From: Patescibacteria group bacterium
GTDB taxonomy: Bacteria; Patescibacteriota; Patescibacteriia; CAIXNZ01
Assembly (NCBI GenBank): GCA_041651155.1
Contig: JBAZJU010000004.1
Coordinates: forward strand, 39,427 to 103,426
Direction: 5' to 3'
Length of the DNA stretch: 64,000 nt
Shown here: piece after piece, positions 10,521 through 37,728 of the stretch
Numbering within the stretch: position 1 is the stretch's first letter
Layout: each line of letters starts with the position of its first letter
Translations under genes and position numbers: made by a program
The notes under the pieces: model-generated
The model's input: only the letters and a program-made list of their open reading frames with translations
What the model was told of the DNA's origin: nothing
Database searches by the model: none

Positions 10521-11375
10521 ATGGCCTTTGGTAAAGAAAAAATTAAAGAATTTCTTGAGGGAAAAACTGAAAAAATAAGTGAAAAAATTGAAAAGACTCC
10601 CATTGACAAGTTCTTCCTGTTTTTTTTGATTTTAATTACAATTTCAGCCCTAGTTTTGGGTTACCTGCAGTTTAAGAAAAATCTGGAGTCGCCTTTAGCA
10701 GACAGTTATTTAAGGGAAAAAAGAGGCCAGCTAAGGGACCAGTATGGTTTGCTTAATTTAATTAATGGCAATGAAAATACCAACCAAAATTTAAGCCAGG
10801 CAGATATTGATAAATTAAAAAGCCAGGATAGTGATTTGGACGGCCTGAATGATTATGAAGAAATATATATTTACCATACCAATGCTTATAACGAAGACAC
10901 TGATGGAGATGGCCTTAGCGATAAGCAGGAAGTTTTAAATAACACTGATCCTAATTGCGCCCAAGGCCAGGATTGCACTGCCTTACAAACAGCAGGCACT
11001 GTTACTTCTGCAGGGGATAATATAAATACAAATCAAGACTCGTCTGCCAGCCAGCCAGATTTAGCAAGCCTGGATCAGAATGCAATTTTAAATTTGGAAA
11101 CCCAGCTTTTATCAGGCGAAATTACTTTGCAGGATTTGGGCATTGATGACCCTGAATTGCAAAATACTTTTGATCAGATTAGAAACGGGCAAGCCACTGA
11201 TTTGAGCCAACTGCAGCCAGAGGAAAAGAGCGCGGCAATTGAGACTTTAAAAAATTTAACTCCGCAGCAAATCAGAGATGAATTGATCAAGCAAGGAATG
11301 TCTGAGGCTGATTTGGATAAAATAGATGATCAGACTTTGCAAAAAGTATTTTTGGACACAATAGGCAAATATTAA
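10521..11375 (+). CDS. Membrane-anchored protein with calcium-binding-like DxDxDG repeats (thrombospondin type 3-like)
   Basis: N-terminal TM segment, DSDLDGLNDYEE and DTDGDGLSDKQE motifs, acidic Gln-rich tail. Confidence 0.5.
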   Translation: MAFGKEKIKEFLEGKTEKISEKIEKTPIDKFFLFFLILITISALVLGYLQFKKNLESPLADSYLREKRGQLRDQYGLLNLINGNENTNQNLSQADIDKLKSQDSDLDGLNDYEEIYIYHTNAYNEDTDGDGLSDKQEVLNNTDPNCAQGQDCTALQTAGTVTSAGDNINTNQDSSASQPDLASLDQNAILNLETQLLSGEITLQDLGIDDPELQNTFDQIRNGQATDLSQLQPEEKSAAIETLKNLTPQQIRDELIKQGMSEADLDKIDDQTLQKVFLDTIGKY

Positions 11376-11410
11376 AAATTTTAAATAGAAAAATAAAAAG
11401 CCTTTTGACC

Positions 11411-14400
11411 ATGCAAAAGACAAAAAAAACAAAATTGCGTAAAGTAATAATCGGGTTTATTGCCGTATTTTTTGTTGTAAATAGTTTCAGCGCAATATTG
11501 ATTTTTAATGTTGAACAGGCAAGCGCTCAAGATAAGGCGGGGTCTGAAGTGGGAGTGACAGCAGGCATACCGGTTACAAATCAGGCATATGCAATAGAAA
11601 GATTTTTGGGCAGTGTAACTGATGAACTAAAAGCAGTGTTTTTCAAAAATATTTTAGGCAATTTGCTTAATAAAATCGCTTCCCAGACAGCTACTTGGAT
11701 TGCCACAGGCGCCAAAGGCAAAGGCCCATACTGGATTACCAATCTAAAGCAATTTACCACTGATTATGCTCAAGGCGCGATCACTGATATGGTCGTTGAA
11801 TCCATTAAGAATGTGACGGGCATAAATATCTGCGAATTTGATCCGCGCATGGCTATTGATTTAGCCCTGCAAATTCCCATGTTCCCGGAATATAAAGGTT
11901 ATCAGCCTAATTGCGATTACACAAAATTAAAAAATCATTGGGATGAAATCGGCAAGTCAAATTTGCTGACTTTTAATTATAGCATTACTGCCGGCGGAGA
12001 ATTTCAGAAAAATTCAGCTCAGCTTTCCAATTCAGTAAGCGTTGACAGGACTTTGTTGGTCTGGGATAAATCATTACTGCAATATCTTTTAAAACTGTCT
12101 CCTTGTGAGCCAAGCGGCATTGGCGAAATTACCTGCGTTGCTCCTGGAATGACTGAGAATCCAGAACAATATATTAAGTCCCAATTGCAGCAAATAGCTG
12201 ATGCTTTGGATACTTTAACTGGCAAATTAGCTTCTGATGTTGAGCTGATGACTAAAAATGCCCAATTAAATACGCCTGTGCAATTATATGTCGGTTCTTT
12301 TATTATCCAGCCGGAAAGAATAAATGACATTAAAGATGCCTGGAATAAAGAAATGGATATATGGGTGACCAAGGCTAATAAAATTAATGATCAATTCAGC
12401 AAATGCCAGAATAAAACCAGGGAGCAGCTTTTAGCTGATCCTAATTGCGTTTCTGTCTTGATTGAATTAGGGTTTGGAGCTTTAGATGTGCCTGGTGCGC
12501 AGTCATCTGTGCTTGTGCCAGATCCTGCGGCACAAACCGAATGCCAAATAATTGCTGGTTGTATGAAAGCTGATGATTGCGCAAATATCCCTGCTTGCAC
12601 AGGCGGTGATCCAATATGCCCGCCAGAATGTACTCAAGCAGATTGCAAAGAAACGCCAAAGCCATTGGGATGTATAAGGACTCAAAATTGCCAGGATTGC
12701 CTGGATAATATTGACGATTGCAGTAAGGTTCCTGCACGATGCAAAATAAGCGGATCTCAGGCTGTTAATACTTTCCAGAGCGAAGTAACAGCCAAAACAA
12801 CTTATGTCGCGGCCACAGCCACTTCTTTGATTAGCGGTTTTAATTATTTGAAAACTCAGATGAATGACAATCTCAACCCTGCCAATTTTGAAGGCGGGGC
12901 AGCTTACAGCGCTAAATTAGCCCAGGGACTTTTTGATCCTCAGGCCAACCAGTTTAATACCTATAAAACTTTATATGAGCAAATGGCCAAGGAAGGTTTA
13001 GGGACATTTGCCGAAAAGCAATTGCAGGCTACGGTTAATCAAGGCTGGAAAAATGCAGAGGACAAAATTTCCGGTTATATTAATACGCCGGCAGAACTTT
13101 TAAAAGCCAAGGCAGTTGAGGATTTGACCAAAAATGATACTTCATTAACCTATACCAAAAGCATAATCGCTGATTCTTTGGGTGTATTTTTAAAAACTTT
13201 GTGGAATAAATATATGCAAAAGCTTTTGAGTTCGCTTTCAAATTCCCACCAAGAACAAAACACCCAGCAATCTTTGGCAGCTCTTTCCGGAACGTCTGTG
13301 ACTGCGCCCCAATCATCAAGCGATCAATATACGCAAAGGATTATAAGCGCCCAGGGAGTGGAAAATTATATTACCAAATTAGCCCAGCAGTTTACAGTTA
13401 ATTTTTCATTTAAAGATGTGGATCTTTTAAGCGCCTTCCAGACAAATTTAAGCGGCGAAGTTAATCCGGATCTTTATAATAATGTCATTGATCAGAATTT
13501 AGCCCAGGCTATCAATGATAAATTAACCATCAAAGAGGCTCTGGCTCAAAATAAATTAATCGGCACATATACATTTTCCTGGAATGAAAAAGCAGATTTG
13601 GGGACATATAACTTAGCTAATCTGAAGAAATTAAGAAAAGCGCGCGTTATCCCTCTGGGTTTGGAATTAGCCGCTGAATTAGTCAGGGATTGCAATTATC
13701 GCCAAGATTTGGGGGCTGATTATGCGCAATATAAAGATTTAGATTTTGATGATACGAATTTTTCCAATGCTTCATTGCAGGGCTATAGCAATACAGCAGA
13801 TCCTTTAAAATACCAAAGGTTAAGAAATTGTTTATTTAAGCCTTTGACAGAAAGTACTTCAGATGCGGCTGCGGTCAGGAATTATAACAGTAAACGATTA
13901 AATGAATCAGTTAAGGCAACTTTGGCTGAGGTGGTCTCTGGGTTTGATAAGTCTGGGACAGGCGCTTGCGGCGGCAATGATTTAGATGAAGAGGAGTCTC
14001 CTTTCTGCAATTTAGTCAATCCCAACTGGGTTTTAAAATTGCCAGTGACTAAATGTTCCCTGCCGACTGAGGCTGAGCCATATGGTGAGATATTGCAATC
14101 AAATAATGATGTCTCACGCTATTCCCATTGTCCGGATTTTGCCAGCTGTTTGCAGGACGATGGCAAAGGCGGCTGTGTCGGTGAAAATTATGGCTTCTGC
14201 GTGAAGGAAAAAAACGTCTGGCAATTCAATGTCAATACTTGCCCGGCTGACTTTAATAGCTGTCAGACTTTTAAAACAGATAAGTCAGATAACGCCAGCC
14301 TGGTTTCATATTTAAAAAATACCTTAAGCGGCAGTGATGTTTGCAGTGCGGCCAATGCCGGTTGCACTTCGTATTTAACTAAAACAGATCAGGCCAGCGC

Positions 14401-17400
14401 CTGGAAAGATCCATTTGTAATTTATAAAAACAGACAGGACTGTGAAACGGCTGGTTTTGGCTGGTTAGCTGAGCAAAATGTTTGCGATCCGTCTAGGATC
14501 TATCTGAATAGAAATGTTAATAGCTGCGTAGTAGCTGATGAAGGCTGCCATGAATTTATGTATTACCGCAATCCGACGAATAATTTACTGCCTGATTCCA
14601 GTTTTGAATTCGCCCAGGATAATACTTTTCCGGCTCATTGGGATTTACTCCTGCAAAGCGAGGTTAGCCAGGATATTTGTACTAATTTGAATGACCCAGC
14701 GAAAAATGTAGGCTGTCAAAGAGAAGGCAATTGCGGATATATCAAAACTTGTTTGAATTATAATTATAAGGATAAAGCTTTGTGCTCAGAAAATAACGGG
14801 CAGTGGTTTCCTGGCGGGTTTTGCAGTGATGGCTCAAGCCCTGATCAAGCTGCTTGCGCTGCTAATTCTGGCCAGTGGTTATATTGCGTTGGTGGCATCA
14901 AGGCCAATGCTGAAAAAAATGATTGTGCCAATAATGCCGGCCAGTTCAGGGAGTATTGTTTAACCAGTTTATTAAAATATAATCTTTGCTCAAATCCTCA
15001 ATATGATAACCAAGCTGCCTGCACAAGTCAGAATGGCACCTGGCATGAAGAATGCCAAAAAGGAGGCCAGGTCGTTACTAATTTGCTGAGACAAGATGAC
15101 TGCGAAGATCCAAATAACGGCGGAACCTGGGTGAGTTTTTGCCAAGGCGCGCAATTATATAATTCCACTAAAGCGCAGTGTCAAAAACTTTTAGGCGCCT
15201 GGCAAGGCGAAGGGCCTTTTACAAGTTTGGGCAGCGTTTCTAAAAATGGCAATGATACCGAGCAAGGCCTGGGCAAATTGCAGATTAATATCGGCAGCCT
15301 GACAGCTGGCCAGGAATTAAGATTAATTTACAAAAATAGCTTTAGCGATACTAGTAAAGTCTTAACCAAAGCAGGTGATGTGTATACCGCTTCAGTTTAC
15401 ATTAAATCCGATCAGGCTTTAAGTTCTCCGATAATATTTAGCTTAATCGGCGGTCAAGGTGAAAGCGAAATTAGCAGTAATAGTATAACCGTTGGGCAAT
15501 CATATGAGCAGGTTAGCAGTACGCTAATTACTTCCAGTCCGGGCAATGATTTAGAGTTGCGTATAAATTTACCAGCGGAACAAACCGGCGCAAATATCTT
15601 TATTGATACTGCTTCCTTGATAATGAATTCACTGGATCAGGTTCGCAGTTATGATTTTGTCCAGTCTTACCAGGATTATGACCTGAATAGCAAGGTTTAT
15701 TATAAAAAACCTGCAGAAAATTTATCTTGCCATGGTTACGGGCCGAATGATCCTCCTCCAAAATTAGAATCAAACGGCTGTTCTGATAATGGCCAAACTT
15801 ATTGTGAAAATACATGCAACGGCTATTGGGATGGAACCAATATTTATTCCACTGCCAAGTTCTGCTATCAGTACGCGCCAGACAATCCTTCATGCAGTAA
15901 TTTTATGAAAATGTGCGAGCCAGAAGAAGTCGGCTGCCAAATGTATACGCCTGTAAATGGCGATCCGTCTATCCCAGGCGTGGTTAGTTTGACTGACTAT
16001 TGTCCGGCTGAATGCGTTGGCTTCCAAACATATAAGCAAGATCCGACATTGTATGAGCCAGAACCCGATCCTTTATTTAATAATTTTATTTCCGAAACTG
16101 CAACAAGTTGTACTTTGGATGAAGTCGGTTGTTCGCAATTTACAAACTTAGACTCTGTAGCTCAAGGCGGAGAGGGCATTGAATATTATTCTTACATCAG
16201 GCAGTGTATTAAGCCAAATCTAGGTTTGGGCGAAAAGACCTTTTTCACCTGGCAAAGCTCAGCCAGCGGGCCGCCTCAATTAGTAAAATACCAATACCAA
16301 AGCGATAAAATAACAGGTGCGCCGAAAACCATTGATAATTCCGGCGATTGCACAATATCATTGGGCGCAGAAGATTTTAATTGCATTAAATTTTTTGACA
16401 GCGCAGGCATAGAATATTACCGCGATAATCGAAAAACTATTACAGTGGCTGATGATTGCCATCCCTACAGAAAGACAGAATCTACACAGGCTAATTGTGT
16501 GGCAACCAATGGACGCTGGCAAGCCGACATTAATGCCTGCCTTTATGATGCGATCCCAAGTGAAGGCTTAGCTTGCAGCGCAGCCTCTAATAATTGCCGG
16601 GCTTATGTGGGTAATCGCGGCAATAATGTATATTTCCAGATTTATGATACTTTTGAAAATGGCCAGATATCAGATTGGTTTACCGGAACTGACGGGACTG
16701 GTACAGAAGGTTTGTTGCCCTCAAGCGAATCTTTAGTTCTGGGCGGACATTCATTGTCTGTTGCAAATTCAGTCAGGGAAATTCATAAATCTGTGAGTCT
16801 GGCCAAAGGCAATTTATACACTTTGTCTTTTTGGGCGAAAACTGACAATTCCGCCGGCAATAATATAGGTGTAAAATTTAATGCGGGTCAGGCTAAATCT
16901 TTTGCCGCGGTTGATGATAAAAAAGTTGCTTTAACAACTAATTGGAAAAATTATAATTTAGGCCCGATTCTAATTGACTGGGATCCAAGCGGCAATGACA
17001 GTTTAAATTTTAGCGGCTTAAACAGCAAAATTTATCTGGACAATATAGTTTTGAAAGTCGTTAAAGATAATGTTTATGTGGTCAAAAATAGTTGGAATAC
17101 GCCTGATTCTTGCAACCAAAATTTCTTTGGGGCAAAGGCAGCTTCTGATGAAATTCCGCCAATGCTTGGTTGCCAGGCTTATACTGATACTTTAGGCCAA
17201 ACGCATAATCTCAAATCATTCACCAGCTTATGCCGTTCAAGCGCGGTCGGTTGCCAGCTGCTGATAGATACGCAAAATTCAACAAGTCCAAATCAGCAGA
17301 TATTTAATGGTGATAATGCTTCTTATCTTGATGATTATACTGTTTCCCAAGATCAATTGGCTGCCTATATTCTGAATGATAGTAATCGTTGCACTGCTGA

Positions 17401-19756
17401 AAATAAAGGCTGCCAAAAATTAGGCTTGCCAAGCTATGGAACGACAGGTGACCCGACATTTTCGGATAAATATCTGAAAAACGATCCCAACCTTTATGTT
17501 AACGCGCCAAACTCCATCATGTGCAGTGAAGAATCATTGGGTTGCAGTGAATTAATCAATGAGTCAGGAACTCCTGAATATTATAAAATAGACCAGACAA
17601 AACTCTGTGAATTCAAAACAGGTTTAGTGGCTGGAGTGAGTGTTGACGGCTGGTTTAAAAAAGGCAGTGCAACTTTGGGTTGCGGTTCTCTGCCGTATGA
17701 CCAGGCTAATTGTCCAGTTGGTGCAGGCGTTTGGAGCGAGAAATACAACCAGTGCGTGATTGTTTTAAATGATGTAACCAGCCAGGATATCTGCGTAGCT
17801 GGCAAGGGCGAATGGCTGGGCAGCAAATGTCTGGCTAATCCTTTTACAATTTATAAAATAGCTGAAGCCAATAAATATAATGGCTATGTTGGAATTTGTG
17901 AAAATAAATGGAATGGCTGTACCCAGTTTACAGATGTTAATCCAAATTTTGTCGCTAATAATAGTTTTGAAACAACAAGCGAAGGCGCGCTTTTGTCCTG
18001 GAATTCAGCAGCATCTGAGAGCTTGGGAATTTACAGGGTAGTTAGCGACAGAGTCCAGGAAGGCAATAATGCTTTGCAATTAATAAAACGAACAGAGCAA
18101 AATGCAAGCGGAGATACTTACGGGTTTGGCCAAACCATTTATCGTTTAGAAAAAGGCAAAACTTATAAAGTTTCTTTTTATTATCGTGTGCCAGCTGAGG
18201 CCAGCGGACGTGGCGAGAGCTGTCTGAGTCCGAGCGCTGCTTTTTCTTTTAATTCCTCAGACGGTATCTGTTCCAACCCTAATCATTTGACCAAAGAAAC
18301 ATGCACAGCCACAGAAACATGGAAAGCTGCGCCGCAAACTGCGGTAAATTATTATAACGCAGAAGGCGACTGGAAAAAAGTAGAAGTTTTGTATTCTGTG
18401 CCTCTGGGGATTTGTTCCACTCCTGGCAGACTGACTCAGGCAGATTGTCTGGCAGGCGGCGGCAGCTGGCAAGACCTTAAGCAGCTGCAGGATTATAAAT
18501 TGGTTTTATACGCGCCAGCTAATGCAAATTGTCCGGATTCTTATGTTTTATATGATCAGGTTGAGGTTAAAGATTATCAGGAAGACAGCTATTATGTCAT
18601 TGATCAAGGAGATAATCTTGATCGCTCCAGCTGCAATAGCATCAATTGGGATTCAGGTTGCGTGCAATTTTTGAATTCAAATACTAATTCTTACGAAATA
18701 ATTCAGGTTGCCAACGACCGCAATTGCGAGGAATGGGCAGTTTGCACCAGTCATTGTTCTGACACCGTGTCTGCCACAGAAGCGGACTGCAAAGCTAATG
18801 GACAAACCTGGAATGCTAGTCTCTGCACTGCCACGAATTTGTGCACTCAAGGAACAACAGATAACTGTACGGCCTATGCGCCTAAAAAAGATAATGTGCG
18901 CTATGGTTTAGACAGCGCGCCATTGGATGTAAAAAGAATAAGCGATTTTACAAACCAACAAGGCTATATTTACCGTTATGGCGCGGGTCCTTTGAGCCAG
19001 CTGACAGAGTGGCGGGCAGGTGACTATTCCGGCTATACAATTCCTGACCGTTTGCCGATTGAAGAGGAAATTAGTTTAGCGCCTGATCAGCAATTTAAGA
19101 CATTCCAGCCGGTTAATGATCTGGGAACCAATACTGATGATAGGCGCTATACTGAAGCGATTTGCAAAATTTTTCCCAGCGCTGACTCGCCAGTGCCTTA
19201 TGTTTTATCCCAGCAGCCGGGCTATGAAAATTTGAAGAGTTTATACAGTCAGACTTATGGTGAAAAATCCATGTCTTTTGAAGTGCTGCAAAGTAATTTG
19301 AATAAAATCGGCACAGGCTGTTTTTATGCCAAGGCAGAAGGCTCTGGCGTAACTACTTATGTGCCGCGCCTCCTGAACCCAGCCGCTGTCTGCACCTCGC
19401 CTTTAGATTTGCAAGGGAAAGTTTGCGAGATTAATGCGAATAATTGTAAAACCAGCTTTGGCGGGATTGAAACAGATGCCTGCAGTAATATTGAAAAAGT
19501 CACTGAGTTTAACGGCCTGGAAGGCATGTGTTTGGAATTTGACACTTTAAATCCGCTTTTTAGCACGATTTATAAAGATTTATATAAATCACTTGATGAA
19601 TCAGAAAATTTAACCGGGTCTGATTATCAGCCTTATGCGTGTTTAACATATTATCCGTTTTTGACTGATACCTGCCCGTTTCACGATGCAAATAATTGCG
19701 CTGCTGATCCCGGCTGCAATTGGACTGAGCCTTCAGGCCCTTGTATCCATAAATAA
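11411..19756 (+). CDS. Giant (~2780 aa) secreted/surface cysteine-rich protein with Cys-repeat arrays and CBM4/9-like beta-sandwich domains
   Basis: N-terminal signal/anchor. More than 100 Cys residues. Tandem C-x3-N-x-G-x-W repeats at about 14.76-15.2 kb. Three NxSFE...W carbohydrate-binding-like modules. ATG at 11411; the track uses TTG at 11405. Confidence 0.7.
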   Translation: MQKTKKTKLRKVIIGFIAVFFVVNSFSAILIFNVEQASAQDKAGSEVGVTAGIPVTNQAYAIERFLGSVTDELKAVFFKNILGNLLNKIASQTATWIATGAKGKGPYWITNLKQFTTDYAQGAITDMVVESIKNVTGINICEFDPRMAIDLALQIPMFPEYKGYQPNCDYTKLKNHWDEIGKSNLLTFNYSITAGGEFQKNSAQLSNSVSVDRTLLVWDKSLLQYLLKLSPCEPSGIGEITCVAPGMTENPEQYIKSQLQQIADALDTLTGKLASDVELMTKNAQLNTPVQLYVGSFIIQPERINDIKDAWNKEMDIWVTKANKINDQFSKCQNKTREQLLADPNCVSVLIELGFGALDVPGAQSSVLVPDPAAQTECQIIAGCMKADDCANIPACTGGDPICPPECTQADCKETPKPLGCIRTQNCQDCLDNIDDCSKVPARCKISGSQAVNTFQSEVTAKTTYVAATATSLISGFNYLKTQMNDNLNPANFEGGAAYSAKLAQGLFDPQANQFNTYKTLYEQMAKEGLGTFAEKQLQATVNQGWKNAEDKISGYINTPAELLKAKAVEDLTKNDTSLTYTKSIIADSLGVFLKTLWNKYMQKLLSSLSNSHQEQNTQQSLAALSGTSVTAPQSSSDQYTQRIISAQGVENYITKLAQQFTVNFSFKDVDLLSAFQTNLSGEVNPDLYNNVIDQNLAQAINDKLTIKEALAQNKLIGTYTFSWNEKADLGTYNLANLKKLRKARVIPLGLELAAELVRDCNYRQDLGADYAQYKDLDFDDTNFSNASLQGYSNTADPLKYQRLRNCLFKPLTESTSDAAAVRNYNSKRLNESVKATLAEVVSGFDKSGTGACGGNDLDEEESPFCNLVNPNWVLKLPVTKCSLPTEAEPYGEILQSNNDVSRYSHCPDFASCLQDDGKGGCVGENYGFCVKEKNVWQFNVNTCPADFNSCQTFKTDKSDNASLVSYLKNTLSGSDVCSAANAGCTSYLTKTDQASAWKDPFVIYKNRQDCETAGFGWLAEQNVCDPSRIYLNRNVNSCVVADEGCHEFMYYRNPTNNLLPDSSFEFAQDNTFPAHWDLLLQSEVSQDICTNLNDPAKNVGCQREGNCGYIKTCLNYNYKDKALCSENNGQWFPGGFCSDGSSPDQAACAANSGQWLYCVGGIKANAEKNDCANNAGQFREYCLTSLLKYNLCSNPQYDNQAACTSQNGTWHEECQKGGQVVTNLLRQDDCEDPNNGGTWVSFCQGAQLYNSTKAQCQKLLGAWQGEGPFTSLGSVSKNGNDTEQGLGKLQINIGSLTAGQELRLIYKNSFSDTSKVLTKAGDVYTASVYIKSDQALSSPIIFSLIGGQGESEISSNSITVGQSYEQVSSTLITSSPGNDLELRINLPAEQTGANIFIDTASLIMNSLDQVRSYDFVQSYQDYDLNSKVYYKKPAENLSCHGYGPNDPPPKLESNGCSDNGQTYCENTCNGYWDGTNIYSTAKFCYQYAPDNPSCSNFMKMCEPEEVGCQMYTPVNGDPSIPGVVSLTDYCPAECVGFQTYKQDPTLYEPEPDPLFNNFISETATSCTLDEVGCSQFTNLDSVAQGGEGIEYYSYIRQCIKPNLGLGEKTFFTWQSSASGPPQLVKYQYQSDKITGAPKTIDNSGDCTISLGAEDFNCIKFFDSAGIEYYRDNRKTITVADDCHPYRKTESTQANCVATNGRWQADINACLYDAIPSEGLACSAASNNCRAYVGNRGNNVYFQIYDTFENGQISDWFTGTDGTGTEGLLPSSESLVLGGHSLSVANSVREIHKSVSLAKGNLYTLSFWAKTDNSAGNNIGVKFNAGQAKSFAAVDDKKVALTTNWKNYNLGPILIDWDPSGNDSLNFSGLNSKIYLDNIVLKVVKDNVYVVKNSWNTPDSCNQNFFGAKAASDEIPPMLGCQAYTDTLGQTHNLKSFTSLCRSSAVGCQLLIDTQNSTSPNQQIFNGDNASYLDDYTVSQDQLAAYILNDSNRCTAENKGCQKLGLPSYGTTGDPTFSDKYLKNDPNLYVNAPNSIMCSEESLGCSELINESGTPEYYKIDQTKLCEFKTGLVAGVSVDGWFKKGSATLGCGSLPYDQANCPVGAGVWSEKYNQCVIVLNDVTSQDICVAGKGEWLGSKCLANPFTIYKIAEANKYNGYVGICENKWNGCTQFTDVNPNFVANNSFETTSEGALLSWNSAASESLGIYRVVSDRVQEGNNALQLIKRTEQNASGDTYGFGQTIYRLEKGKTYKVSFYYRVPAEASGRGESCLSPSAAFSFNSSDGICSNPNHLTKETCTATETWKAAPQTAVNYYNAEGDWKKVEVLYSVPLGICSTPGRLTQADCLAGGGSWQDLKQLQDYKLVLYAPANANCPDSYVLYDQVEVKDYQEDSYYVIDQGDNLDRSSCNSINWDSGCVQFLNSNTNSYEIIQVANDRNCEEWAVCTSHCSDTVSATEADCKANGQTWNASLCTATNLCTQGTTDNCTAYAPKKDNVRYGLDSAPLDVKRISDFTNQQGYIYRYGAGPLSQLTEWRAGDYSGYTIPDRLPIEEEISLAPDQQFKTFQPVNDLGTNTDDRRYTEAICKIFPSADSPVPYVLSQQPGYENLKSLYSQTYGEKSMSFEVLQSNLNKIGTGCFYAKAEGSGVTTYVPRLLNPAAVCTSPLDLQGKVCEINANNCKTSFGGIETDACSNIEKVTEFNGLEGMCLEFDTLNPLFSTIYKDLYKSLDESENLTGSDYQPYACLTYYPFLTDTCPFHDANNCAADPGCNWTEPSGPCIHK

Positions 19757-19764
19757 AAAAATAA

Positions 19765-22700
19765 ATGTTGGCTAAAATAAAAAATTTTTTTCTGCACAAT
19801 AAGACTGCCCAAATATATTTATTAAATGTGGGGCTGGTTGTTTTTATTTTGTTAATTGTTTTTTATCCGTTAACTGTCCATGCAGATATACTAAGCGGTA
19901 TTGTTAGCAATGCTTTTAATTCCGGCATTTCTATTATTATATTTATCCTGAATGCTTTTATTAAATTGTTCGGCTCGCTTTTAACAGTGGTCATGGGCGT
20001 TTTGACCTGGATTGCCCAGTATAATAAATTTATTGATAATCCATACGTCAATGAGGGCTGGGTGATTTTGCGCGATTTGGTCAATATGTTTTTTGTTTTA
20101 GGCCTGCTTTTTATTGCTTTTGTGACTGTTTTGGGCATTGAAAAACAGCCCTGGAATAAGCTTTTAGCCAGGCTTTTGATCATGGCGATCATGGTTAATT
20201 TTAGCAAGACCATTTGCGGCTTAATCATTGATTTTTTTCAGGTTTTAATGCTGACGTTTGTTAATGCTTTTAAAGATATAACTTCAGGTAATATTGAAAA
20301 AGCTTTAGGTATGGAAAATTGGTTTAAAATTCTTCCAACTGCTACTGGTGCCCAAGGAGAAATTACAGGAGGTACAGACTGGAGGCAGGGTTTAACAGCA
20401 GTGGCCGGCAGTTTATTAGGTCTGATTTATGTGATGGTTGCGTTTATTGTTGTCCTTATTTTTTGTGTGGTTTTGGCTTTTAGAATGGTTGCTTTGTGGA
20501 TTTTGGTAGTTTTTTCACCTTTGGCATTTTTTGCCTGGGCCTTTGAAGGCGCTGCTGGCAAGGTTGGCAAATTTGCCAATGAATGGTGGGATCAATTTTT
20601 CAATTATTGCGTGGTGGGACCTTGCATTGCTTTTTTCTTATGGATCTCTCTAATTACCATGGCGAAATTAAATTATGATCAGATGAATACATCTGTCACG
20701 GCAGCTGATCGGGCAAAGATAAATGCTGATATAGGAGCTGGTTCCAGCATGGATCAAGTTTTATCAGTTTTAATCGGCATTATAATGCTGGTTTCTGGCT
20801 TAACAATGTGTTCAAAATACGCTGGCGCAGCAGCCGGAGTCATGACCAAAGGCGCTAATTTTATCAAAGATCAGACAGCAGGCAGGCTGGAGCGGGCGGC
20901 AACTAGAGTTGGACGCGAAACTGCTGGAGTAGTTGGTGCGCCATTCAGAGCAGCTGGCGCAATGGCTAAATTGCCTTTTAAGGCTTTAAAGCCATTTGCC
21001 ACCGGGGCGGCTGAAGGTGCAAAGGAAAGATTGCAGAGAGGTCCTTTTTCAAGACTTTTAACAAAAGAAGGTCGCGCTCAAACAGCTGAAGCTATGAGAG
21101 AAAGAGGCAGAGCTCTTGTTCCAGGCGTCGGTCGTTTGGGTATTAGAGAAATGCGTGCTAAACAAGCGGAAGATTTTAAAAAAATCAGAAAGGATATAAA
21201 TTGGGAAAATCCAGATCAAATTAGAAAAATACAAGAAGCAGCCATAGAAAGAGATCCAAAAACCAGTAAAATTACCAGAGTAGAAAATAAAGACAGGCGT
21301 TTTTGGGAATCAACTTATACAGCTTTGGCTGATGCCGGCAAATTAAAATACAGTGATATTGAAGACATGAAAAGTTTACCTTTTTACCAAGAAATGCAAA
21401 CGGAGTCAGGCGATAGAGGCAGACAAGTCTTTTTAGAAGATATGGAAAAAAGATATGAAAAGAAGACTCAAATTAAAAAAGCTTTTTCCTCCTTGATTTA
21501 TAATGCCGATACTAATGAATACGATGATATTGAGGATTTAGAAGAAAGAAGCGACACTGCCAAAAGCAGAGCCAAAACAGCTGGTCGTGATTTAAGCGGC
21601 ATTGATTTTAATAAAATAAGACGCAAAAAAGACGATGGGACATATGAATTTGATGTTAATAGTGATGAGTACAAAAATTTGGCCAAAAATGACCCTGATA
21701 ATTTAGCATATTTACAAAATCTTCAAGCACAAGGAACCGGAACCAAATCGGATTTTTATGCTTTAGCCAGATCAACGGAAATTAGGGAGAAAAAATTCAA
21801 TGAGATTAGAAAAGCAGCCGCTACTGCTTCAGAACCCAATCTTAATGAAGCAGGGAAACAGGCTAATTTAGGCGATATTATTCAAAATCCGCCCGATTAT
21901 GCAGTGGCAGAAATTGACGGCTTTACAGACCAAATACCCAGAATTGGCAAACTTGATAAAATTGCCCGGGATAATGTCAATGCCAAGGCCAGATTTTTAA
22001 TGGGAGATAATCGTGAGCGGGCGGCTTTAATTGAAGCCAATAAAAATCTTTTTGATAAATCTTTGCATCGTCAGGAAAATGAAACAGAAAATGAGCATGC
22101 AACGCGGTTAGGGGGCATGTCGCAAATTAAAAAAATTGATGATATTAAAGGTAAAATGAAAGAGGAACAGCTTGAAAAATTTCAGAATTTAATCATTGAA
22201 TCAAGCTCACAATTTAATGCCATCGGCCAGAAATTACCAGGGGGAGAAGGCCAATCAAGCGCTAACCTGGATTCCATAATACGCCAAAAGAGAGTGCAAA
22301 GTGGTGTCACAGCTGGCCTTAAAGCATTTATACCGAATGTTAATGATTTGGAATTTGTTGATGCCCAGGCAGCGCAAATGTTAGCTCAAACAGCAGACTT
22401 CCCAAGAGAAGACAGGATAAACAAAATTTCAATTCGCTTGGCGGTTAGAAAAAACCTGCCAGAAGAAAATAGGAATAAAATTGCAGAATATTTGATTGAC
22501 AATGAAGTTATTGTTAGAACTCGCGAGAAAAAAGAGGAAGCTGTGAAAGAAAAAGTAAAAGTAAATATCAAGACAACCATTGATGAAGTGAAAAAGCAGG
22601 TGCAAAGCAGAGTAATTGATCAGGGTAAAATAGAATTTGCCATTGATAATATTATTTTCAGGATAAATAAAGAAATTACAGAAGGCGCTTTGCCAGAGGA

Positions 22701-22863
22701 AACTTTTAAGCCCGAGTTATTAAAGCAAGAGTTATCAAAGCTGGTAGAGATGTTGGGTAAATTTGAAAGTAAAGAAGAGGCAACTTCAGCAGTCAAAAAA
22801 GTTGAAGACGCTGTTGAGGCCTTGGGTTATAAAGTTAAAACTCAAAAAGGGAAAAAGAAATAA
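19765..22863 (+). CDS. VirB6/TrbL-like polytopic membrane protein with long C-terminal charged (K/E-rich) domain
   Basis: About 8 TM helices in the first ~340 aa, then ~690 aa of hydrophilic coiled-coil-like sequence. Sits beside the VirB4 ATPase. Confidence 0.5.
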   Translation: MLAKIKNFFLHNKTAQIYLLNVGLVVFILLIVFYPLTVHADILSGIVSNAFNSGISIIIFILNAFIKLFGSLLTVVMGVLTWIAQYNKFIDNPYVNEGWVILRDLVNMFFVLGLLFIAFVTVLGIEKQPWNKLLARLLIMAIMVNFSKTICGLIIDFFQVLMLTFVNAFKDITSGNIEKALGMENWFKILPTATGAQGEITGGTDWRQGLTAVAGSLLGLIYVMVAFIVVLIFCVVLAFRMVALWILVVFSPLAFFAWAFEGAAGKVGKFANEWWDQFFNYCVVGPCIAFFLWISLITMAKLNYDQMNTSVTAADRAKINADIGAGSSMDQVLSVLIGIIMLVSGLTMCSKYAGAAAGVMTKGANFIKDQTAGRLERAATRVGRETAGVVGAPFRAAGAMAKLPFKALKPFATGAAEGAKERLQRGPFSRLLTKEGRAQTAEAMRERGRALVPGVGRLGIREMRAKQAEDFKKIRKDINWENPDQIRKIQEAAIERDPKTSKITRVENKDRRFWESTYTALADAGKLKYSDIEDMKSLPFYQEMQTESGDRGRQVFLEDMEKRYEKKTQIKKAFSSLIYNADTNEYDDIEDLEERSDTAKSRAKTAGRDLSGIDFNKIRRKKDDGTYEFDVNSDEYKNLAKNDPDNLAYLQNLQAQGTGTKSDFYALARSTEIREKKFNEIRKAAATASEPNLNEAGKQANLGDIIQNPPDYAVAEIDGFTDQIPRIGKLDKIARDNVNAKARFLMGDNRERAALIEANKNLFDKSLHRQENETENEHATRLGGMSQIKKIDDIKGKMKEEQLEKFQNLIIESSSQFNAIGQKLPGGEGQSSANLDSIIRQKRVQSGVTAGLKAFIPNVNDLEFVDAQAAQMLAQTADFPREDRINKISIRLAVRKNLPEENRNKIAEYLIDNEVIVRTREKKEEAVKEKVKVNIKTTIDEVKKQVQSRVIDQGKIEFAIDNIIFRINKEITEGALPEETFKPELLKQELSKLVEMLGKFESKEEATSAVKKVEDAVEALGYKVKTQKGKKK

Positions 22864-22878: not shown

Positions 22879-24210
22879 ATGCCGGAAAGAAATTATAAAA
22901 TAGAAAATTTAGGGAATTTTCAAGACATATTTTTTCAGGTATTAAAAAAAAATAATGTGGAAGCCGAAACTGAAAAGATTTTTGATTTTTTAGTCCAAAC
23001 AATTTTAGGCAGGTTTAACGTTTTGCAGTTGAGCAATTCATTTGAAAGTGATTTGAATCTTGATTTTGAAACCGCCAATAGTTTGGCATATGATTTAAAA
23101 ATTAAGATTTTGGATAAAAAATCTGATCTGGACGAGGTAAAAAACAAGTTGCAAGGCAAAACCTGGCAAAAATATTCTCCGCTGGCCATTGCTGATGAGT
23201 TTTTGGCTAAATTAAATTATTCGCTAAAGGATGAAAATAAGAAAAAAAGATATTACGAAGCGATTTTGAGCTGGCTAAAGGAAGTGCGCGATCTGCCTGA
23301 ACTGAAAGATATTTTGACCCGTTCAGAAAAAATTGGCGGCATAGGCATGAGTGAAGAAGTTTTTAATCGACTTTATGATTTGCTTGTTGCTAAAAAAGAG
23401 GAAATCAGAAAAGAAAAGGTTGATTTGATCAAAATAATTGCGGATTATGAGTTAGGACAGAAAAAAGAAACTGTGGCTATGCCAAGTGGAATTAAGGAAG
23501 AAGAGATAGATGTTTCGGCCAGACCAAAACAAATTTCCATTGTTAAAGAAAATCCAACCGGGGGTGATGTTACCATTGACCATTTACTAAAGGAAAAAGG
23601 GGTGCCCTTTGAGGAATTAGCGCAAAAGGAAGAGATAAAGAGGCAGCTTGGCGAAATAGCAAAAATTGCTTCCAAGCCGGAAGCCCCCTTAGTTGAAGAG
23701 ATTAAGGCGAATGAAGAATTCATAGAAAGCCGAAAAGAAATTGAACCGCCAGCCCAAACAAATTACCAGCTCAGGCAGCCAGTTATACATCCAGAAATGC
23801 CGATACCTTCAGAGCTTAAAACCGAATTTAAGCAGCCGATGGTTAAAAACACTGACAACGAGATCAGGCCGAAATTAGATGACGTGAAATTTACCCCTCA
23901 ATTATACGGGCCCGTTGATGAATTAGGAGCCTTTAAAATTGAGGATCTGCGCCGCTTATCTAAAGATCCGCAGGTCGCAGTCCAGAAAATAAAATCCAAA
24001 ATTGAACTTTTAGAAGACGATTCGCTTGTTAAGAGAAATGAAGGCCTCAAGGCCTTAAAAAACAGTCCGCTTTATAAAGCTTATGCTGAAATTATGAACA
24101 CAGCAATTAAAGAAGGCAAATCATTTGCTCAAGTCATAGCAGCGAAGCCAATTATGACTCTGGCCGAGTTTAAAGCAGTAATGGATTTAAATAAAAGTCT
24201 AAAGTATTGA
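22879..24210 (+). CDS. Hypothetical charged/coiled-coil protein (T4SS-locus associated)
   Basis: 443 aa, K/E-rich, no recognisable motif. Confidence 0.45.
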   Translation: MPERNYKIENLGNFQDIFFQVLKKNNVEAETEKIFDFLVQTILGRFNVLQLSNSFESDLNLDFETANSLAYDLKIKILDKKSDLDEVKNKLQGKTWQKYSPLAIADEFLAKLNYSLKDENKKKRYYEAILSWLKEVRDLPELKDILTRSEKIGGIGMSEEVFNRLYDLLVAKKEEIRKEKVDLIKIIADYELGQKKETVAMPSGIKEEEIDVSARPKQISIVKENPTGGDVTIDHLLKEKGVPFEELAQKEEIKRQLGEIAKIASKPEAPLVEEIKANEEFIESRKEIEPPAQTNYQLRQPVIHPEMPIPSELKTEFKQPMVKNTDNEIRPKLDDVKFTPQLYGPVDELGAFKIEDLRRLSKDPQVAVQKIKSKIELLEDDSLVKRNEGLKALKNSPLYKAYAEIMNTAIKEGKSFAQVIAAKPIMTLAEFKAVMDLNKSLKY

Positions 24211-24331: not shown

Positions 24332-24778
24332 ATGGCTGATGAAGTACAGGAGACGCAATCATTATCGCATTTTTTAGTGCCGCAATTCATTGATATAGAA
24401 TCAAAAATTATCGGGCCAATCACCACCAGGCAATTTCTGATTATGATGGTTGCCGGCATGCTGGATTTTATTTTTTATAAGATATTTTATTTTAATACAT
24501 TTTTAGCCGTGGGGATCATAGTTTCAGGCATTTTTGGCGTAGTTGCTTTTGTAAAAATTAATGGCATGCCTTTTCACTTTTTTTCCCTGAATGTAATTCA
24601 GACATTAAAAAAATCCAAACTAAGGCTGTGGTCAAAAGAAGCAATTACGGCTCTGCCGCCGGTTGAAAAGGCAGAGGTTAAAAAAGAATTTATAGCCAAG
24701 CCTGCTTTGGTCAGTTCCAGGCTGTCCAGCTTATCTTTAGTGGTCAATACAGGCGGCGCTTATCGGGAAGAAGAATAA
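24332..24778 (+). CDS. Small two-TM membrane protein (possible VirB3/PrgI-like T4SS component)
   Basis: 148 aa, two adjacent hydrophobic helices, immediately upstream of the VirB4 pieces. Confidence 0.35.
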   Translation: MADEVQETQSLSHFLVPQFIDIESKIIGPITTRQFLIMMVAGMLDFIFYKIFYFNTFLAVGIIVSGIFGVVAFVKINGMPFHFFSLNVIQTLKKSKLRLWSKEAITALPPVEKAEVKKEFIAKPALVSSRLSSLSLVVNTGGAYREEE

Positions 24779-24794: not shown

Positions 24795-24850
24795 ATTTTA
24801 TTCACAGATAACACAGATTTGTGAATAGTATCAGTGTAAATCTGTGATAA
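24795..24850 (+). promoter_or_regulatory. Operator-like TCACAGA/TCTGTGA direct and inverted repeat cluster upstream of the virB4 N-terminal ORF
   Basis: attcacagataacacagatttgtgaat, then repeated aatctgtg. The same heptamer family occurs at 58131-58195. Confidence 0.35.
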
Positions 24851-24882
24851 TTAATCTGTGTTTAAGATATCAAATCAAATCT

Positions 24883-28933: not shown

Positions 28934-29141
28934 TAAGGAAATCACTATTAAGCTATTAAGCGGATCAAAATCCGCCGAAGCCCGACTCAGAAAATTTTTA
29001 TTTAAAGCCTTCCCTCTAAAACTATAGAGGGCGAAGGCGGAGCCCAGATGCAAGTTTGTGTATTTCATCGGTAAAGCCGTATAAATAATATTGATAAATA
29101 TTTTACGGTTGAATTATAAATTACACAGACTTGCATCTGGG

Positions 29142-29228
29142 CGGAGAGGGTAGGATTCGAACCCACGGCCCCGTAAACGGGGCTCCGGTTTTCAAGACCG
29201 GTGCATTCGACCGCTCTGCCACCTCTCC
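29142..29228 (-). tRNA. tRNA-Ser (anticodon TGA), type II with long variable arm
   Basis: Manual fold: acceptor GGAGAGG/CCTCTCC, 3-bp D stem, anticodon loop CTTGAAA, long variable arm, T-arm GTGGG-TTCGAAT-CCTAC. No CCA encoded. Confidence 0.8.
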
Positions 29229-29391
29229 ATATTTTATAACTATAACAAATAACTATATTATCGCCCAGCTACAAGTTTATGTGAAGGACGGAGACCCGAT
29301 AAAAGTTTATGAATTTTGTTGTTCAAATCCGTTAAATAACCATTTATTATTAAATCAGTTGCAGATATTTATTCACAGACTTTTATCGGGT

Positions 29392-29482: not shown

Positions 29483-29587
29483 AAAAGCGCTTTGCTTTCT
29501 CTTATCTTAGCAGAAAAAAATAAGAGTGTCAAAAGTTTATTACCTGAATATAATCCCTTAAATCTTAAATTATTTTAGACAAAAAAT

Positions 29588-35435: not shown

Positions 35436-37055
35436 TTAATTTGCTTCGCATTCTGCTTTATCAGCACATTTGCTAGCTCCAAAAAGAGCGCCAATGCAAC
35501 AATTAGATTGGCAAGCATATCTTGATAGAGGCCACGCTCCGCTTTCATAATCATTAACTACCCAGCCAAAGCATGCCGTACCATTCGGGGCTTTTGGCGT
35601 GCAGACTCCTGCCCCTGTGCAGCCATTGCCATCAGAAGCGATGCCAGAAAGAAAGTTATGGCAGGCACAAAATAATCCGGAAACACAATTAAGATTACTT
35701 GTGCAGACGGCACCTTTTTGGCCTTGGAAATCTTTTGGTGCGCATAAGGCTAAAGTGCCGCCAGAACAGTTTCCGCTTAAACATACTGCATTTGTCCCGC
35801 CGCCAAATATTCCTAACAGAGTGTTATATGTTGAGTCACCTAATACAAGTTCACTGCAATTTGCACCATTTTCCCTTTTTGGGAAACAAGAACCTTGTTG
35901 ATTTGCTCCTTTTGAAGCACAATACCAGTTTGCTTCGGGTTGGCATTTTGTGCTTGCATCACAGGTTAAAAGAGGTCCAATCTTTGTACAGCAGATTGGT
36001 TTAGATGTATCCAGGCAAACTCCTCCGTTAGAACTTGCTGTTAGGCCAGCGGCATCACCTTGTCCGCAAGCGCTAGCATAACATTGAGCCAAAGGATCTT
36101 TACCATTACATGTGCTGGCGAATGCTTGTTGAGCTGTGGGCACAGCAGCGCCTTGGCATTGATCAAAACTGACGATTTTACCTTTACAATCAGCCTGAGT
36201 GGAAAAATAAAAGTTTGTGCCGCTTTGGCAGCAATACTGGGCGGTTATTTGTTCAGGGGGTGTTATGGGTTGAAAGGTGATGGTGCCAGGACTAACGATT
36301 TGCAGAACAAAAATAGCAAAAAGTGAAATAAATAAGCCCAGCAAGGCTTTGATAATCGTGCTTTTGGCCTGGCCAATTTTACCGCTATCTCCGCCTGACA
36401 CGATCCAACGAACTCCGCCGATTATAATCATCACAATAGCAACGACGACAACAACCGAAGAGCCAAAAGTAAAAAGAGCTTTAATATAATCGCCAATAGT
36501 GGAGCCGGAAATGGTTAATTCTGATAAGTTGCTCAAAGGTATTTGGAGCTGTAATTTTATCGTTTCTGTCGCAACAGGCGGCGTGTAAGGTTGGATAGTC
36601 GTATCTGCTGCTGTACCTGCTGCGGGGTTTGTTGCTGGGCTAGTTGGCGTCAAGGGCTGGCAGCAATAATTATTTGGCGATTTATTATTGGCGCACCAGC
36701 TATCAAGGGTAAAGCCAGCTGTTCTATCTGGGCAGGTTTTTGATTCGCACTTATTGGGATCTGCGCAAGTTATTCCAGTAGTTTTAGGAACACAGCAATA
36801 TATCTCAAGCCCAGACTGGCAGTCAATACTATCAGCAACTGTTGGGGCAAGATCAGTTGTATCGCAAGCAGGCAAGGATTTGCAAGTACCTGTGGCTCCG
36901 GAAAGATTTTTACAGGTCGCCGCTAATACATTTTGAGGAAATAAGAATAATAAAGCCAGCAGGAATAAATATAAAAATCCCAGAATATTTTTTTTCATGA
37001 GGTTGGTATAAAATTTAATTTTAAAGGGGAGTGTTTTATTGGAGCTTGGCATCAA
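35436..37055 (-). CDS. Secreted cysteine-rich protein with a central two-helix membrane hairpin
   Basis: Signal peptide, two Cys-rich domains of about 30 Cys each, and an internal hydrophobic pair (VVVVVAIVMIIIGG...LLGLFISLFAIFVL). Confidence 0.55.
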   Translation of the reverse strand: MMPSSNKTLPFKIKFYTNLMKKNILGFLYLFLLALLFLFPQNVLAATCKNLSGATGTCKSLPACDTTDLAPTVADSIDCQSGLEIYCCVPKTTGITCADPNKCESKTCPDRTAGFTLDSWCANNKSPNNYCCQPLTPTSPATNPAAGTAADTTIQPYTPPVATETIKLQLQIPLSNLSELTISGSTIGDYIKALFTFGSSVVVVVAIVMIIIGGVRWIVSGGDSGKIGQAKSTIIKALLGLFISLFAIFVLQIVSPGTITFQPITPPEQITAQYCCQSGTNFYFSTQADCKGKIVSFDQCQGAAVPTAQQAFASTCNGKDPLAQCYASACGQGDAAGLTASSNGGVCLDTSKPICCTKIGPLLTCDASTKCQPEANWYCASKGANQQGSCFPKRENGANCSELVLGDSTYNTLLGIFGGGTNAVCLSGNCSGGTLALCAPKDFQGQKGAVCTSNLNCVSGLFCACHNFLSGIASDGNGCTGAGVCTPKAPNGTACFGWVVNDYESGAWPLSRYACQSNCCIGALFGASKCADKAECEAN

Positions 37056-37728
37056 TGATTTTTTTAAGCGTATCCACGTTTAGGTAGCCTTCAACTTTTT
37101 CATCATTGATATAAACAGTCGGGATGGAAACAATTTGTAAATTTATGGCGTCATTAATATTTTGAGTCAAGACCGGGTTGAATTTTTTAGCCTCATAGCA
37201 CTGGTTGAATTTTTCCAGATCCAGGCCTAATTGATTGGCATACTCGCGATAGATCTGTAAATTTAAGTTGTTAAGATTTTGAAAAATCAAATCTTTGTAG
37301 GGCCAAAATTTTCCTTGGTCGCTTGCGCAATAAGCAGCAGTCGTGGCATTTAGGTTTTCTGCCGTATTGGTGATGGGCAGGCTCTTATACACAAAAAGCA
37401 CCTTATTCCCGTATAATTTTTGTAATGAGGCTGAATTTTTTTCCCAGTCAGCGCAGGCCGGGCAGCCAAAATCAGTATATTCATAGACTGTGACCTTGGC
37501 GCCAGTTAGTCCAAGAGAAGGATCAAAACGATTAATTTGAGGTGAAACTCGAGTAAGCTCTTGCTGTTGCCCTTTATAATATTTATCCATCGTAGTTACT
37601 AAAGACCAGTAATTCCATGAATAGCCGACTATGATAAAAGAAAAAATAATTAAAACAATGACCGTAAAAATAATAAAATAAACAAAATAAAATTTGGTTG
37701 TAGTGAATTTACTTTTATCAAGAGGCAT
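37036..37728 (-). CDS. DsbA-like thioredoxin-fold oxidoreductase with N-terminal TM anchor
   Basis: CPAC active-site motif (DFGCPACADW) within a thioredoxin-like fold. Confidence 0.75.
   Translation of the reverse strand: MPLDKSKFTTTKFYFVYFIIFTVIVLIIFSFIIVGYSWNYWSLVTTMDKYYKGQQQELTRVSPQINRFDPSLGLTGAKVTVYEYTDFGCPACADWEKNSASLQKLYGNKVLFVYKSLPITNTAENLNATTAAYCASDQGKFWPYKDLIFQNLNNLNLQIYREYANQLGLDLEKFNQCYEAKKFNPVLTQNINDAINLQIVSIPTVYINDEKVEGYLNVDTLKKIIDAKLQ

Follow-up and report, generated by a model that had tools for sequence, protein, structure and literature searches.

A giant cysteine-rich protein with CBM4/9-type modules, encoded next to a TSP3-repeat membrane protein, as a candidate cell contact factor of Patescibacteria

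The stretch of DNA analyzed here, a window of 64,000 nucleotides (nt) from contig JBAZJU010000004.1 of a Patescibacteria group bacterium, carries in the span 10521-19756 two genes on the + strand, one for a membrane protein with thrombospondin type 3 (TSP3) repeats and, after it, a giant gene for a cysteine-rich protein of 2,781 amino acids (aa). We confirmed that this giant protein holds three β-sandwich modules of the CBM4/9 (CenC) type, a family of carbohydrate-binding modules (CBMs), which are embedded in a scaffold of conserved cysteines. The gene pair recurs across many Patescibacteria lineages, usually beside genes that resemble those of a type IV secretion system (T4SS). An adhesin or cell contact role is plausible from the domains and the gene context. 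The reading that we favor, with a confidence somewhat below even, is that the giant protein is a surface-held, disulfide-rich protein which together with its TSP3 partner serves in glycan or cell contact, probably in conjunction with the T4SS-like apparatus.

The giant gene and its carbohydrate-binding-type modules

The giant open reading frame (ORF) extends from an ATG at 11411 to 19756, with an in-frame TTG at 11405, and its frame is open over 2,783 codons (11405/11411..19756). The features of the giant gene, its partner, and the T4SS-like genes described below are on the + strand. A preliminary description, made from the DNA letters and a list of ORFs, had placed the start at 10521, which in fact belongs to the upstream gene; its estimate of about 2,780 aa with more than 100 cysteines agrees well with the 114 cysteines (4.1% of residues) counted here. 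Serine, asparagine, and glycine are abundant as well. An identical protein is on deposit as a hypothetical protein from a metagenome-assembled genome (MAG) of a Patescibacteria group bacterium.

Three regions of the giant protein share the motifs [ND]-x-[ST]-F-E..W, G-x-x-Y-x-x-S-F/x-[WY], and [IV]-[YF]-[LI]-D. The preliminary description had noted an NxSFE...W signature in three segments; three SFE...W-like segments are indeed present, at aa 1062 (DSSFEF..W), about aa 1746 (DTFENG..DW), and aa 2183 (NNSFE..SW), but N-x-S-F-E in its literal form occurs only once. Two of the three CBM4/9-like modules that it proposed exceed the gathering score of 25.9 for Pfam CBM_4_9 (PF02018). Module 2 (aa 1739-1890, 16625..17080; GNLYTLSFW... 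and IYLDNIVL), recognized by Pfam and AlphaFold2 (AF2), scores 30.9 bits over aa 1746-1849, and module 3 (aa 2176-2392, 17936..18586; NNSFE..., GKTYKVSFY..., and VLYDQVEV), recognized by Pfam and hhalign, scores 28.4 bits over aa ~2179-2264. The whole giant protein reaches 41 bits (E 3.1e-10).

Module 1 is split in sequence and was recognized by hhalign and AF2. Its N-terminal strands (NLLPDSSFEF...HWDLLLQSEV) lie at aa 1058-1086 (14582..14668) and the remaining sandwich (GDVYTASVY... and IFIDTASL) at aa 1265-1410 (15203..15640), with an array of cysteine-containing repeats between them. Pfam did not match module 1 even when the array was spliced out, and only one of seven spliced homologues gave a hit, at E 0.065. 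The wider family, however, carries an uninterrupted canonical module at exactly this position. When the spliced module 1 was aligned with this canonical module, hhalign returned a probability of 94% and E 1.3e-7; the alignment spans 140 columns, first strand to last, and skips the splice point. In the AF2 model a strand at aa 1077-1085 is followed by the array and then by eight strands at aa 1289-1406, with a predicted local distance difference test score (pLDDT) of ~70-89. The skip in the alignment and the order of the strands together indicate that the array is inserted into an early loop of module 1. The canonical family module also aligned with module 2 (96%) and module 3 (96%), whereas comparisons among the three modules of the giant protein itself, with shallow profiles of eight sequences, were not significant.

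The predicted structures agree with this assignment. AF2 modeled module 2 with a pLDDT of ~70-87, and Foldseek against the Protein Data Bank (PDB) matched CBM4, CBM22, and CBM16 structures at template modeling (TM) scores, relative to the target, of 0.55-0.70 and root mean square deviations (rmsd) of 3.4-5 Å, the module behind each match being unspecified. The possibility that no CBM-like fold would be found was thus not borne out. Among viral models, the matches were phage tail-fiber, minor-tail, and host-specificity proteins with CenC-type modules, with E values down to 1e-15. Cry protoxins, EngBF fusions, and Elapor1 also appeared in the Foldseek output but were uninformative (TM ~0.1, rmsd >30 Å), and sequence searches of the PDB with the whole giant protein, the array, or the spliced module 1 gave no matches. 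In module 2, an alignment of 15 sequences shows no variation at H1780, S1781, Y1803, F1807, K1810, W1845, and D1877, and module 3 carries two inserted Cys-helix-Cys-x-W units, at aa 2287-2301 and 2335-2354.

The repeat array

The array inside module 1 comprises six Cys-helix-Cys-(N)G-x-W hairpin units (aa 1114-1264, 14750..15202), as defined by motif statistics and AF2. The tandem run of about six repeats reported in the preliminary description, whose quoted strings map to aa 1124-1264, is therefore real, but its literal pattern C-x3-N-x-G-x-W has zero exact matches and gives way to [TN]-Q-x-[DE]-C-x(2,3)-N-x(0,1)-G-x-W-x(2,6)-C. We counted the pattern C-x(3,6)-G-x-W 10 times where 0.46 were expected (at most 3 in 500 shuffles), and 7 times, with 0.12 expected, when the closing cysteine is included. 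From 59 units in eight full-length homologues (41-58% identity) we derived the consensus [TN]-Q-x-[DE]-C-x(2,3)-N/G-G-x-W-x(2,6)-C. Four array units are common to all eight homologues, and in these the Cys, Gly, and Trp positions are invariant. AF2, applied to aa 1040-2180, models the array as regular units of a short helix and a β-hairpin (pLDDT ~80-88).

Copy number varies among these eight close homologues from four (P0007) to seven (P0006), compared to six here, and the P0006 array shows a clean duplication of one unit. Single units also occur outside the array, at aa 1683-1703, 2091-2108, 2115-2134, 2335-2354, and 2449-2467. Tandem Repeats Finder did not detect DNA-level tandem repeats in the giant gene, so the units are old and diverged. 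Beyond the close homologues, the array is missing from distant relatives, and a hidden Markov model of the unit matched only 19 of 163 family representatives (~10%). At the level of sequence, then, the array is a lineage-specific insertion in module 1 and not a hallmark of the family.

The repeat had been called novel, and we found no match to it in Pfam, NCBIfam, or PDB sequences (the last searched with an array profile). Nor was there a Pfam match at E≤1, for the whole protein or for nine overlapping segments, to the EGF, furin-like, GCC2_GCC3, TNFR, or Myxococcus Cys-rich repeats. A wide protein search with the alignment of the array came back empty and did not recover even the query's own protein, and it is therefore uninformative about the array outside the family.

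The cysteine scaffold

The feature that spans the family is a second cysteine motif, C-x6-C, typically C-x4-[VN]-G-C-x2-[FY], which is absent from the domain libraries searched (Pfam and NCBIfam). It occurs 15 times against 4.6 expected, between aa 944 and 2170 (window ~14240-17920). Eleven copies belong to the conserved scaffold, and ten have both cysteines invariant in an alignment of 15 sequences. Of the 114 cysteines, 79 are invariant in the eight full-length homologues; across 136 family members, 51 reach a conservation of at least 90%, and most of these are grouped in local pairs. Judged from these alignments, the C-x6-C motif, which the preliminary description had overlooked, and the 51 conserved cysteines are the family-wide hallmark.

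The scaffold begins with a first family-wide Cys-rich segment at aa 853-1046 (13967..14548), with three C-x6-C motifs and cysteines that are invariant in the 15 sequences and at least 90% conserved in the 136. The family core follows at aa 1486-2180 (15866..17950) and consists of a conserved Cys-rich block, module 2, and a second Cys-rich block that contains two more G-x-W units. Among the eight close homologues, aa 1500-1750 form the most conserved block, with 69-84% mean column identity. The sandwich modules and the array lie below this scaffold core, at 45-55% identity, and such variability is as expected for parts that contact a ligand. The AF2 model is poor for aa 1498-1691. A C-terminal Cys-rich region at aa 2400-2781 (18608..19753) has neither a transmembrane segment nor a sorting signal. 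One Cys-rich insert, aa 372-446 (12524..12748; ~80 aa with 12 cysteines in C-x5/6-C spacing), is found in this protein only; in seven full-length homologues a short Cys-free linker sits in its place.

To infer disulfide connectivity, we used the co-occurrence of cysteines in the 136-member alignment. Variable cysteines come and go as neighboring pairs, namely 1011/1025, 1102/1108, 1138/1149, 2335/2346, 2408/2417, 2449/2460, and 2755/2769, and the isolated units 2287/2298 and 2335/2346 have no downstream cysteine at all. A unit would thus consist of a cysteine, about 10 residues ending in a short helix, a second cysteine, and a (N)G-x-W strand, with the cysteine pair stapling the helix.

N terminus, topology, and export

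At the N terminus of the giant protein (aa 1-39, 11411..11527), a basic n-region leads into a long hydrophobic core and an A-S-A|Q site. The whole resembles a cleavable Sec signal peptide more than an anchor. A hydrophobic N-terminal segment is present in 125 of 134 family members, followed by a strict A-x-A in 69 and often by small-x-small variants in the others. Because this signal-peptidase-type site is conserved, the N-terminal anchor assumed in the preliminary description is doubtful. A C-terminal transmembrane segment occurs in none of the 134 members, the giant protein included; its hydropathy profile shows no transmembrane segment beyond the N-terminal hydrophobic stretch; and an LPXTG motif is missing from the giant protein and present in 2 of the 134, which is chance level. 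Taken together with the 114 cysteines, the signal-peptide-like N terminus bears out the idea that the protein is giant, rich in cysteine, and exported.

The same window encodes, on the - strand at 37036..37728, an enzyme that might form disulfides in exported proteins. It is a DsbA-like oxidoreductase of the thioredoxin fold (Thioredoxin_4, E 7e-31; DSBA, E 1e-11), and two related loci (L003 and L004) have DsbA-like genes close to the giant gene as well. A nearby gene of this kind fits with disulfide formation outside the cytoplasm.

Behind the signal peptide, aa 40-840 (11528..13930) are Cys-poor and predicted to be mostly α-helical. AF2 modeled the N-terminal 1,020 aa as long helices with a mean pLDDT of only 49.6, and in Foldseek against the PDB this region gave a best E of only 0.5. 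Weak rows for Tc toxins and BAR domains were set aside.

Family and distribution

With the core (aa 1486-2180) as family profile, an exhaustive profile search recovered 1,894 representatives (E≤1e-3); 1,178 clusters stayed within the stricter limit of E≤1e-30. A word-indexed search gave at least 15 relatives. Family members are mostly 2,000-3,500 aa long among the 150 matches listed. A wide search with the full-length alignment returned only proteins that had already been recovered. Distant members are collinear with the giant protein over aa 1-315, 500-757, 830-1075, and 1486-2200. Of 15 diverse members, 11 carry CBM_4_9 (best E 9.8e-16) and one carries DUF7107; Pfam found no other domain in them. 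An enzyme or catalytic domain was found neither in the giant protein nor in these relatives (Pfam), and the same holds for SLH, LysM, CWB, or similar anchoring domains (Pfam and NCBIfam for the giant protein, Pfam for the relatives). NCBIfam as a whole gave zero matches for the giant protein.

A scan of species-representative genomes yielded 118 loci with a giant gene. Those with a named lineage are Patescibacteria, namely Falkow-, Buchanan-, Uhr-, Magasanik-, Komeili-, and Kuenenbacteria and Parcubacteria, with one record labeled Saccharimonadales. Exceptions are many third party annotation MAG records (CAZ*/CAY*) titled "uncultured Gammaproteobacteria" and short contigs binned as Methanoregula sp. 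(L085, JALOBP010000105.1) and Tangfeifania sp. (L041, CAYTDH010000396.1). These labels are probably the result of misbinning or placeholder names, as the contigs show the same arrangement of KsgA, TSP3, and giant genes as the Patescibacteria loci.

We found no description of this family in Pfam, in NCBIfam, or in the full-text literature searched, which does not cover all journals. A large, adhesin-like surface protein with CBM-type modules beside a monoderm-type T4SS is of a known kind; the scaffold, the two cysteine motifs, and the partner were not previously known.

The TSP3 partner

The gene upstream of the giant gene (10521..11375) encodes a single-pass membrane protein of 284 aa, with its transmembrane helix at aa 26-52 and two TSP3-type repeats. 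Pfam TSP3_bac (PF18884) matches both repeats (E 1.4e-11, 44.4 bits against a cutoff of 25), and the preliminary description was therefore right to place a membrane protein with TSP3-like, Ca-binding DxDxDG motifs at this position. The repeat loops read DSDLDG.. and DTDGDG.., and DxDxDG occurs in 61 of 69 partner homologues, mostly in two copies; the repeats are putative Ca-binding sites. Partner proteins share one fixed layout (loci L001-L085). The transmembrane helix is followed by two TSP3 loops and then a conserved loop, DPNCxxGQxC, and a low-complexity linker leads to a conserved C-terminal motif of ~35 aa, tPxxIRxxLxxxGvdxxxLdxxxDxxL, which is present once or twice. At E≤1, TSP3_bac and CBM_4_9 were the only Pfam matches, and neither a dockerin in the partner nor a cohesin in the giant protein was found.

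The link between the two genes is close. Synteny was counted over 85 related loci. Of the 66 that reach far enough upstream, 65 have the TSP3 partner immediately before the giant gene, and KsgA precedes the partner in 61 of 66.

The T4SS-like neighborhood

The preliminary description had put the giant gene directly upstream of T4SS-like genes, and this proved correct. After a gap of 8 nt follows a gene for a polytopic membrane protein of 1,032 aa (19765..22863) with ~8 transmembrane segments in its N-terminal third, and 15 nt further on a gene for a 443-aa protein (22879..24210); the gap between the partner and the giant gene is 35 nt, and all these genes are on the same strand. Neither downstream protein has a Pfam or NCBIfam match, and both are conserved across many related loci, the 443-aa protein within the T4SS-like cluster. 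By its position, the 1,032-aa protein is a candidate for a VirB6-type polytopic channel protein. Some 4.6-8 kb downstream of the giant gene, and on its strand, lie genes for PrgI (VirB3-like; 24332-24778, E 1.1e-7, 32.7 bits against 27), a TrsD/TraC-like protein (24844-25536; TrsD/TraD NF041427, E 5.5e-10, under NCBI's cutoff), and a VirB4-type ATPase (25564-27504; P-loop_TraG, E 2.2e-26, and AAA_10, E 1.2e-10). In 37 of 53 loci (70%), the giant gene is followed by a homologue of the polytopic protein.

G+C varies between 31 and 42% across the window, and the genes are nearly all on one strand until ~32.7 kb. A scan for promoters and terminators gave counts no higher than in shuffled sequence and is uninformative about operon structure.

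VirB4 is followed by a gene for a small transmembrane protein, a ComF-like gene, RecG, and then a RadA-like gene on the opposite strand. The ComF-like protein (double zinc ribbon plus phosphoribosyltransferase), RecG, and the RadA-like protein flank the T4SS-like genes at 28211-34803. This association with comF, recG, and radA, genes of DNA uptake and recombination, is known from the T4SS loci of "Magasanikiibacteriota" (10.1101/2025.01.22.634366), and in view of it the T4SS-like machine may handle DNA.

On the - strand, immediately downstream of the dsbA-like gene and overlapping it by 20 nt, lies a gene whose 539-aa product carries a T4SS pilin domain (PF18895, E 3.5e-8); the two genes together occupy 35436-37728. 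This places a second T4SS-related gene 16 kb from the main cluster and beside a disulfide oxidoreductase.

Discussion

In the reading that we favor, the giant gene and the TSP3 gene would form a conserved two-gene module, and the giant gene product would be a Sec-exported, disulfide-cross-linked, multidomain protein kept at the Patescibacteria cell surface. After cleavage of the signal peptide it would be retained by noncovalent, probably Ca-dependent binding to the ectodomain of the TSP3 partner; the near-obligate presence of a membrane protein partner argues for retention at the cell. The rigid, disulfide-rich scaffold would then project the β-sandwich modules outward, where they may bind envelope glycans of another cell. 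Such a contact could position or stabilize the adjacent T4SS-like apparatus, as separately encoded adhesins do in Gram-positive conjugation.

Several observations weigh against this reading. The case for anchoring by the partner is one of gene linkage, and about half of the giant protein (aa 40-840 and 1498-1691) has only low-confidence models. CBM-type folds are also used for protein-protein contacts, so the modules need not bind glycans. No T4SS genes adjoin the giant gene in 16 of 53 loci, and in L003 and L005 (one Falkowbacteria genome and one other) the TSP3-giant pair occurs with no T4SS genes beside it. The order KsgA-TSP3-giant is clade-wide, so the adjacency to T4SS genes could be inherited synteny. 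In addition, the T4SS cluster of the Saccharibacteria member S. epibionticum contains no gene of giant size (supplement of PMC10633639), which means that the giant protein is not a universal part of the T4SS of the candidate phyla radiation (CPR). The persistence of the pair without T4SS genes and the clade-wide gene order would be expected if the giant protein were a general envelope protein, such as an S-layer-like coat, a spacer, or a wall-organizing scaffold, whose work with the TSP3 partner does not involve the T4SS, the adjacency being frozen synteny. The very wide spread of the family fits with this idea too, as does the fact that Pfam and NCBIfam found no enzymatic or T4SS-specific domain in the giant protein. 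We nevertheless consider a general envelope protein unlikely, if worth serious thought, because in 70% of the loci T4SS genes come right after the giant gene, separated by only a few bases, and because SLH or other S-layer or wall-anchoring domains were not found (Pfam and NCBIfam). Known S-layer proteins are also usually Cys-poor.

Alternatively, the giant protein could be a structural part of the T4SS-like machine and not a separate adhesin, for example, an extracellular stalk, cap, or conduit through the wall and S-layer that replaces the outer complex missing from monoderm-type systems. Its great length and rigid disulfide-rich scaffold, the gap of only 8 nt before the gene in the VirB6 position, and the orientation shared with PrgI and VirB4 would suit such a role, and the block at aa 1500-1750 surpasses the putative binding modules in conservation, which would be expected of a surface that touches the machine. 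This seems rather improbable to us, since the giant gene is absent from the essential Saccharibacteria T4SS cluster, 30% of the giant-gene loci have no adjacent T4SS genes, and neither the sequence nor the fold of the giant protein resembles a known T4SS component. Release onto the host cell, as an effector, toxin, or glycan-degrading protein, is highly improbable. Such a role would explain the secretion signal together with CBM-type modules, which often accompany glycoside hydrolases, and Cry protoxins are among the multidomain Foldseek matches; those matches are accounted for by shared CBM-like sandwiches, however, the C terminus is conserved and not polymorphic, and the obligate membrane protein partner points to retention. 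A polymorphic toxin or glycosidase was rejected, as none of the 16 family members examined has a catalytic domain. Finally, a protein rich in S, N, and G, for which the literal patterns of the preliminary description had no exact match, might owe its repeats and "modules" to the composition of Cys/Asn/Ser-rich sequence, or the ORF might not be real. The chance of this is negligible: the motif counts are 20-fold over shuffles, the AF2 models of the repeats are confident, and Pfam scores exceed the threshold. Cys, Gly, and Trp positions are also conserved across homologues at 41-58% identity, more than 1,000 homologous clusters exist, and an artifact is thus ruled out.

Comparison with known systems gives several partial parallels. 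The modules share with CBM4/CBM9, CBM22, and CBM16 the Pfam match, the motifs, and the predicted jelly-roll fold, but in contrast to CBM4/9 modules they have no attached glycoside hydrolase and are embedded in a disulfide-rich scaffold; modules 1 and 3 hold inserted Cys-stapled mini-domains, and the ligand could be a protein. The phage receptor-binding, tail-fiber, and host-specificity proteins, which gave the best structural matches in the viral library, are likewise long and extracellular and use CBM-type sandwiches to recognize envelope glycans. Their TM scores are low (~0.1), because only the sandwiches match, and unlike these proteins the giant protein has a disulfide-rich scaffold, no phage genes as neighbors, and no trimerization or tail-attachment domains that we could detect. 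Giant proteins of other ultrasmall or predatory bacteria, such as those of Omnitrophota, are also very large and exported, come from bacteria with small genomes and a life on or alongside other cells, and have a proposed role at the cell-cell interface. They belong to a different lineage with different domains, whereas the giant protein described here has no enzymatic or signaling domains, its own cysteine pattern, and a conserved partner and locus.

A parallel in gene order exists with PrgB/aggregation substance, PrgA, and PrgC of pCF10 and TraO of pIP501, which are likewise large and exported and are encoded just upstream of MPF_FATA channel genes. The contact role proposed here, cell-cell contact for a secretion machine, is also the one proposed for PrgB-type adhesins. 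The giant protein has no sequence or domain homology to them and no LPXTG motif, and it is much larger, Cys-rich, and accompanied by a dedicated TSP3 partner; Pfam and NCBIfam found no PrgB or antigen I/II-type adhesin domain in it. The CPR system also has no relaxase, unlike Gram-positive conjugative T4SS. The T4SS of the CPR are of the monoderm MPF_FATA type, and PrgB-like adhesins were not detected for them (10.1101/2025.01.22.634366). In Saccharibacteria the T4SS is essential for epibiotic growth (PMC10633639), and the function of the CPR T4SS-like system has been called "completely unknown" (PMC11665869).

A bolder idea can be drawn from the cohesin-dockerin pair of the cellulosome, as an analogy only. 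The partner has two tandem Ca-binding loop-helix segments, as does dockerin, and the giant protein has jelly-rolls, as does cohesin; the partner repeats, however, are of the TSP3 type, and the interaction is purely hypothetical. By this analogy, the TSP3-giant pair might act as a Ca-dependent "dock-and-display" device that builds the host contact organelle of the patescibacterial T4SS-like machine, with the variable modules and the expandable array setting the host range. We give this idea a low probability. If it is true, the pair would be the adhesin reported missing by surveys of CPR T4SS.

Patescibacteria account for much of bacterial diversity and seem to live attached to other cells. The giant family is a candidate contact component in the Falkow-, Buchanan-, Uhr-, and Magasanikbacteria lineages. 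More than 1,000 clusters of secreted proteins of ~2,700 aa with modules of the glycan-binding type, encoded beside a partner of the Ca-binding type and usually beside T4SS genes, would fit the gap left by the missing adhesin. The family is also an unusual bacterial case of a giant protein that is predicted to be heavily disulfide bonded, with two cysteine motifs outside the domain libraries searched.

Elsewhere in the window, at 55703-57274, lies a gene for a 523-aa protein with an S-adenosylmethionine-dependent, histidine-specific methyltransferase domain of the EgtD type (PF10017, E 7.7e-40), an enzyme that is unexpected for a reduced Patescibacteria genome.

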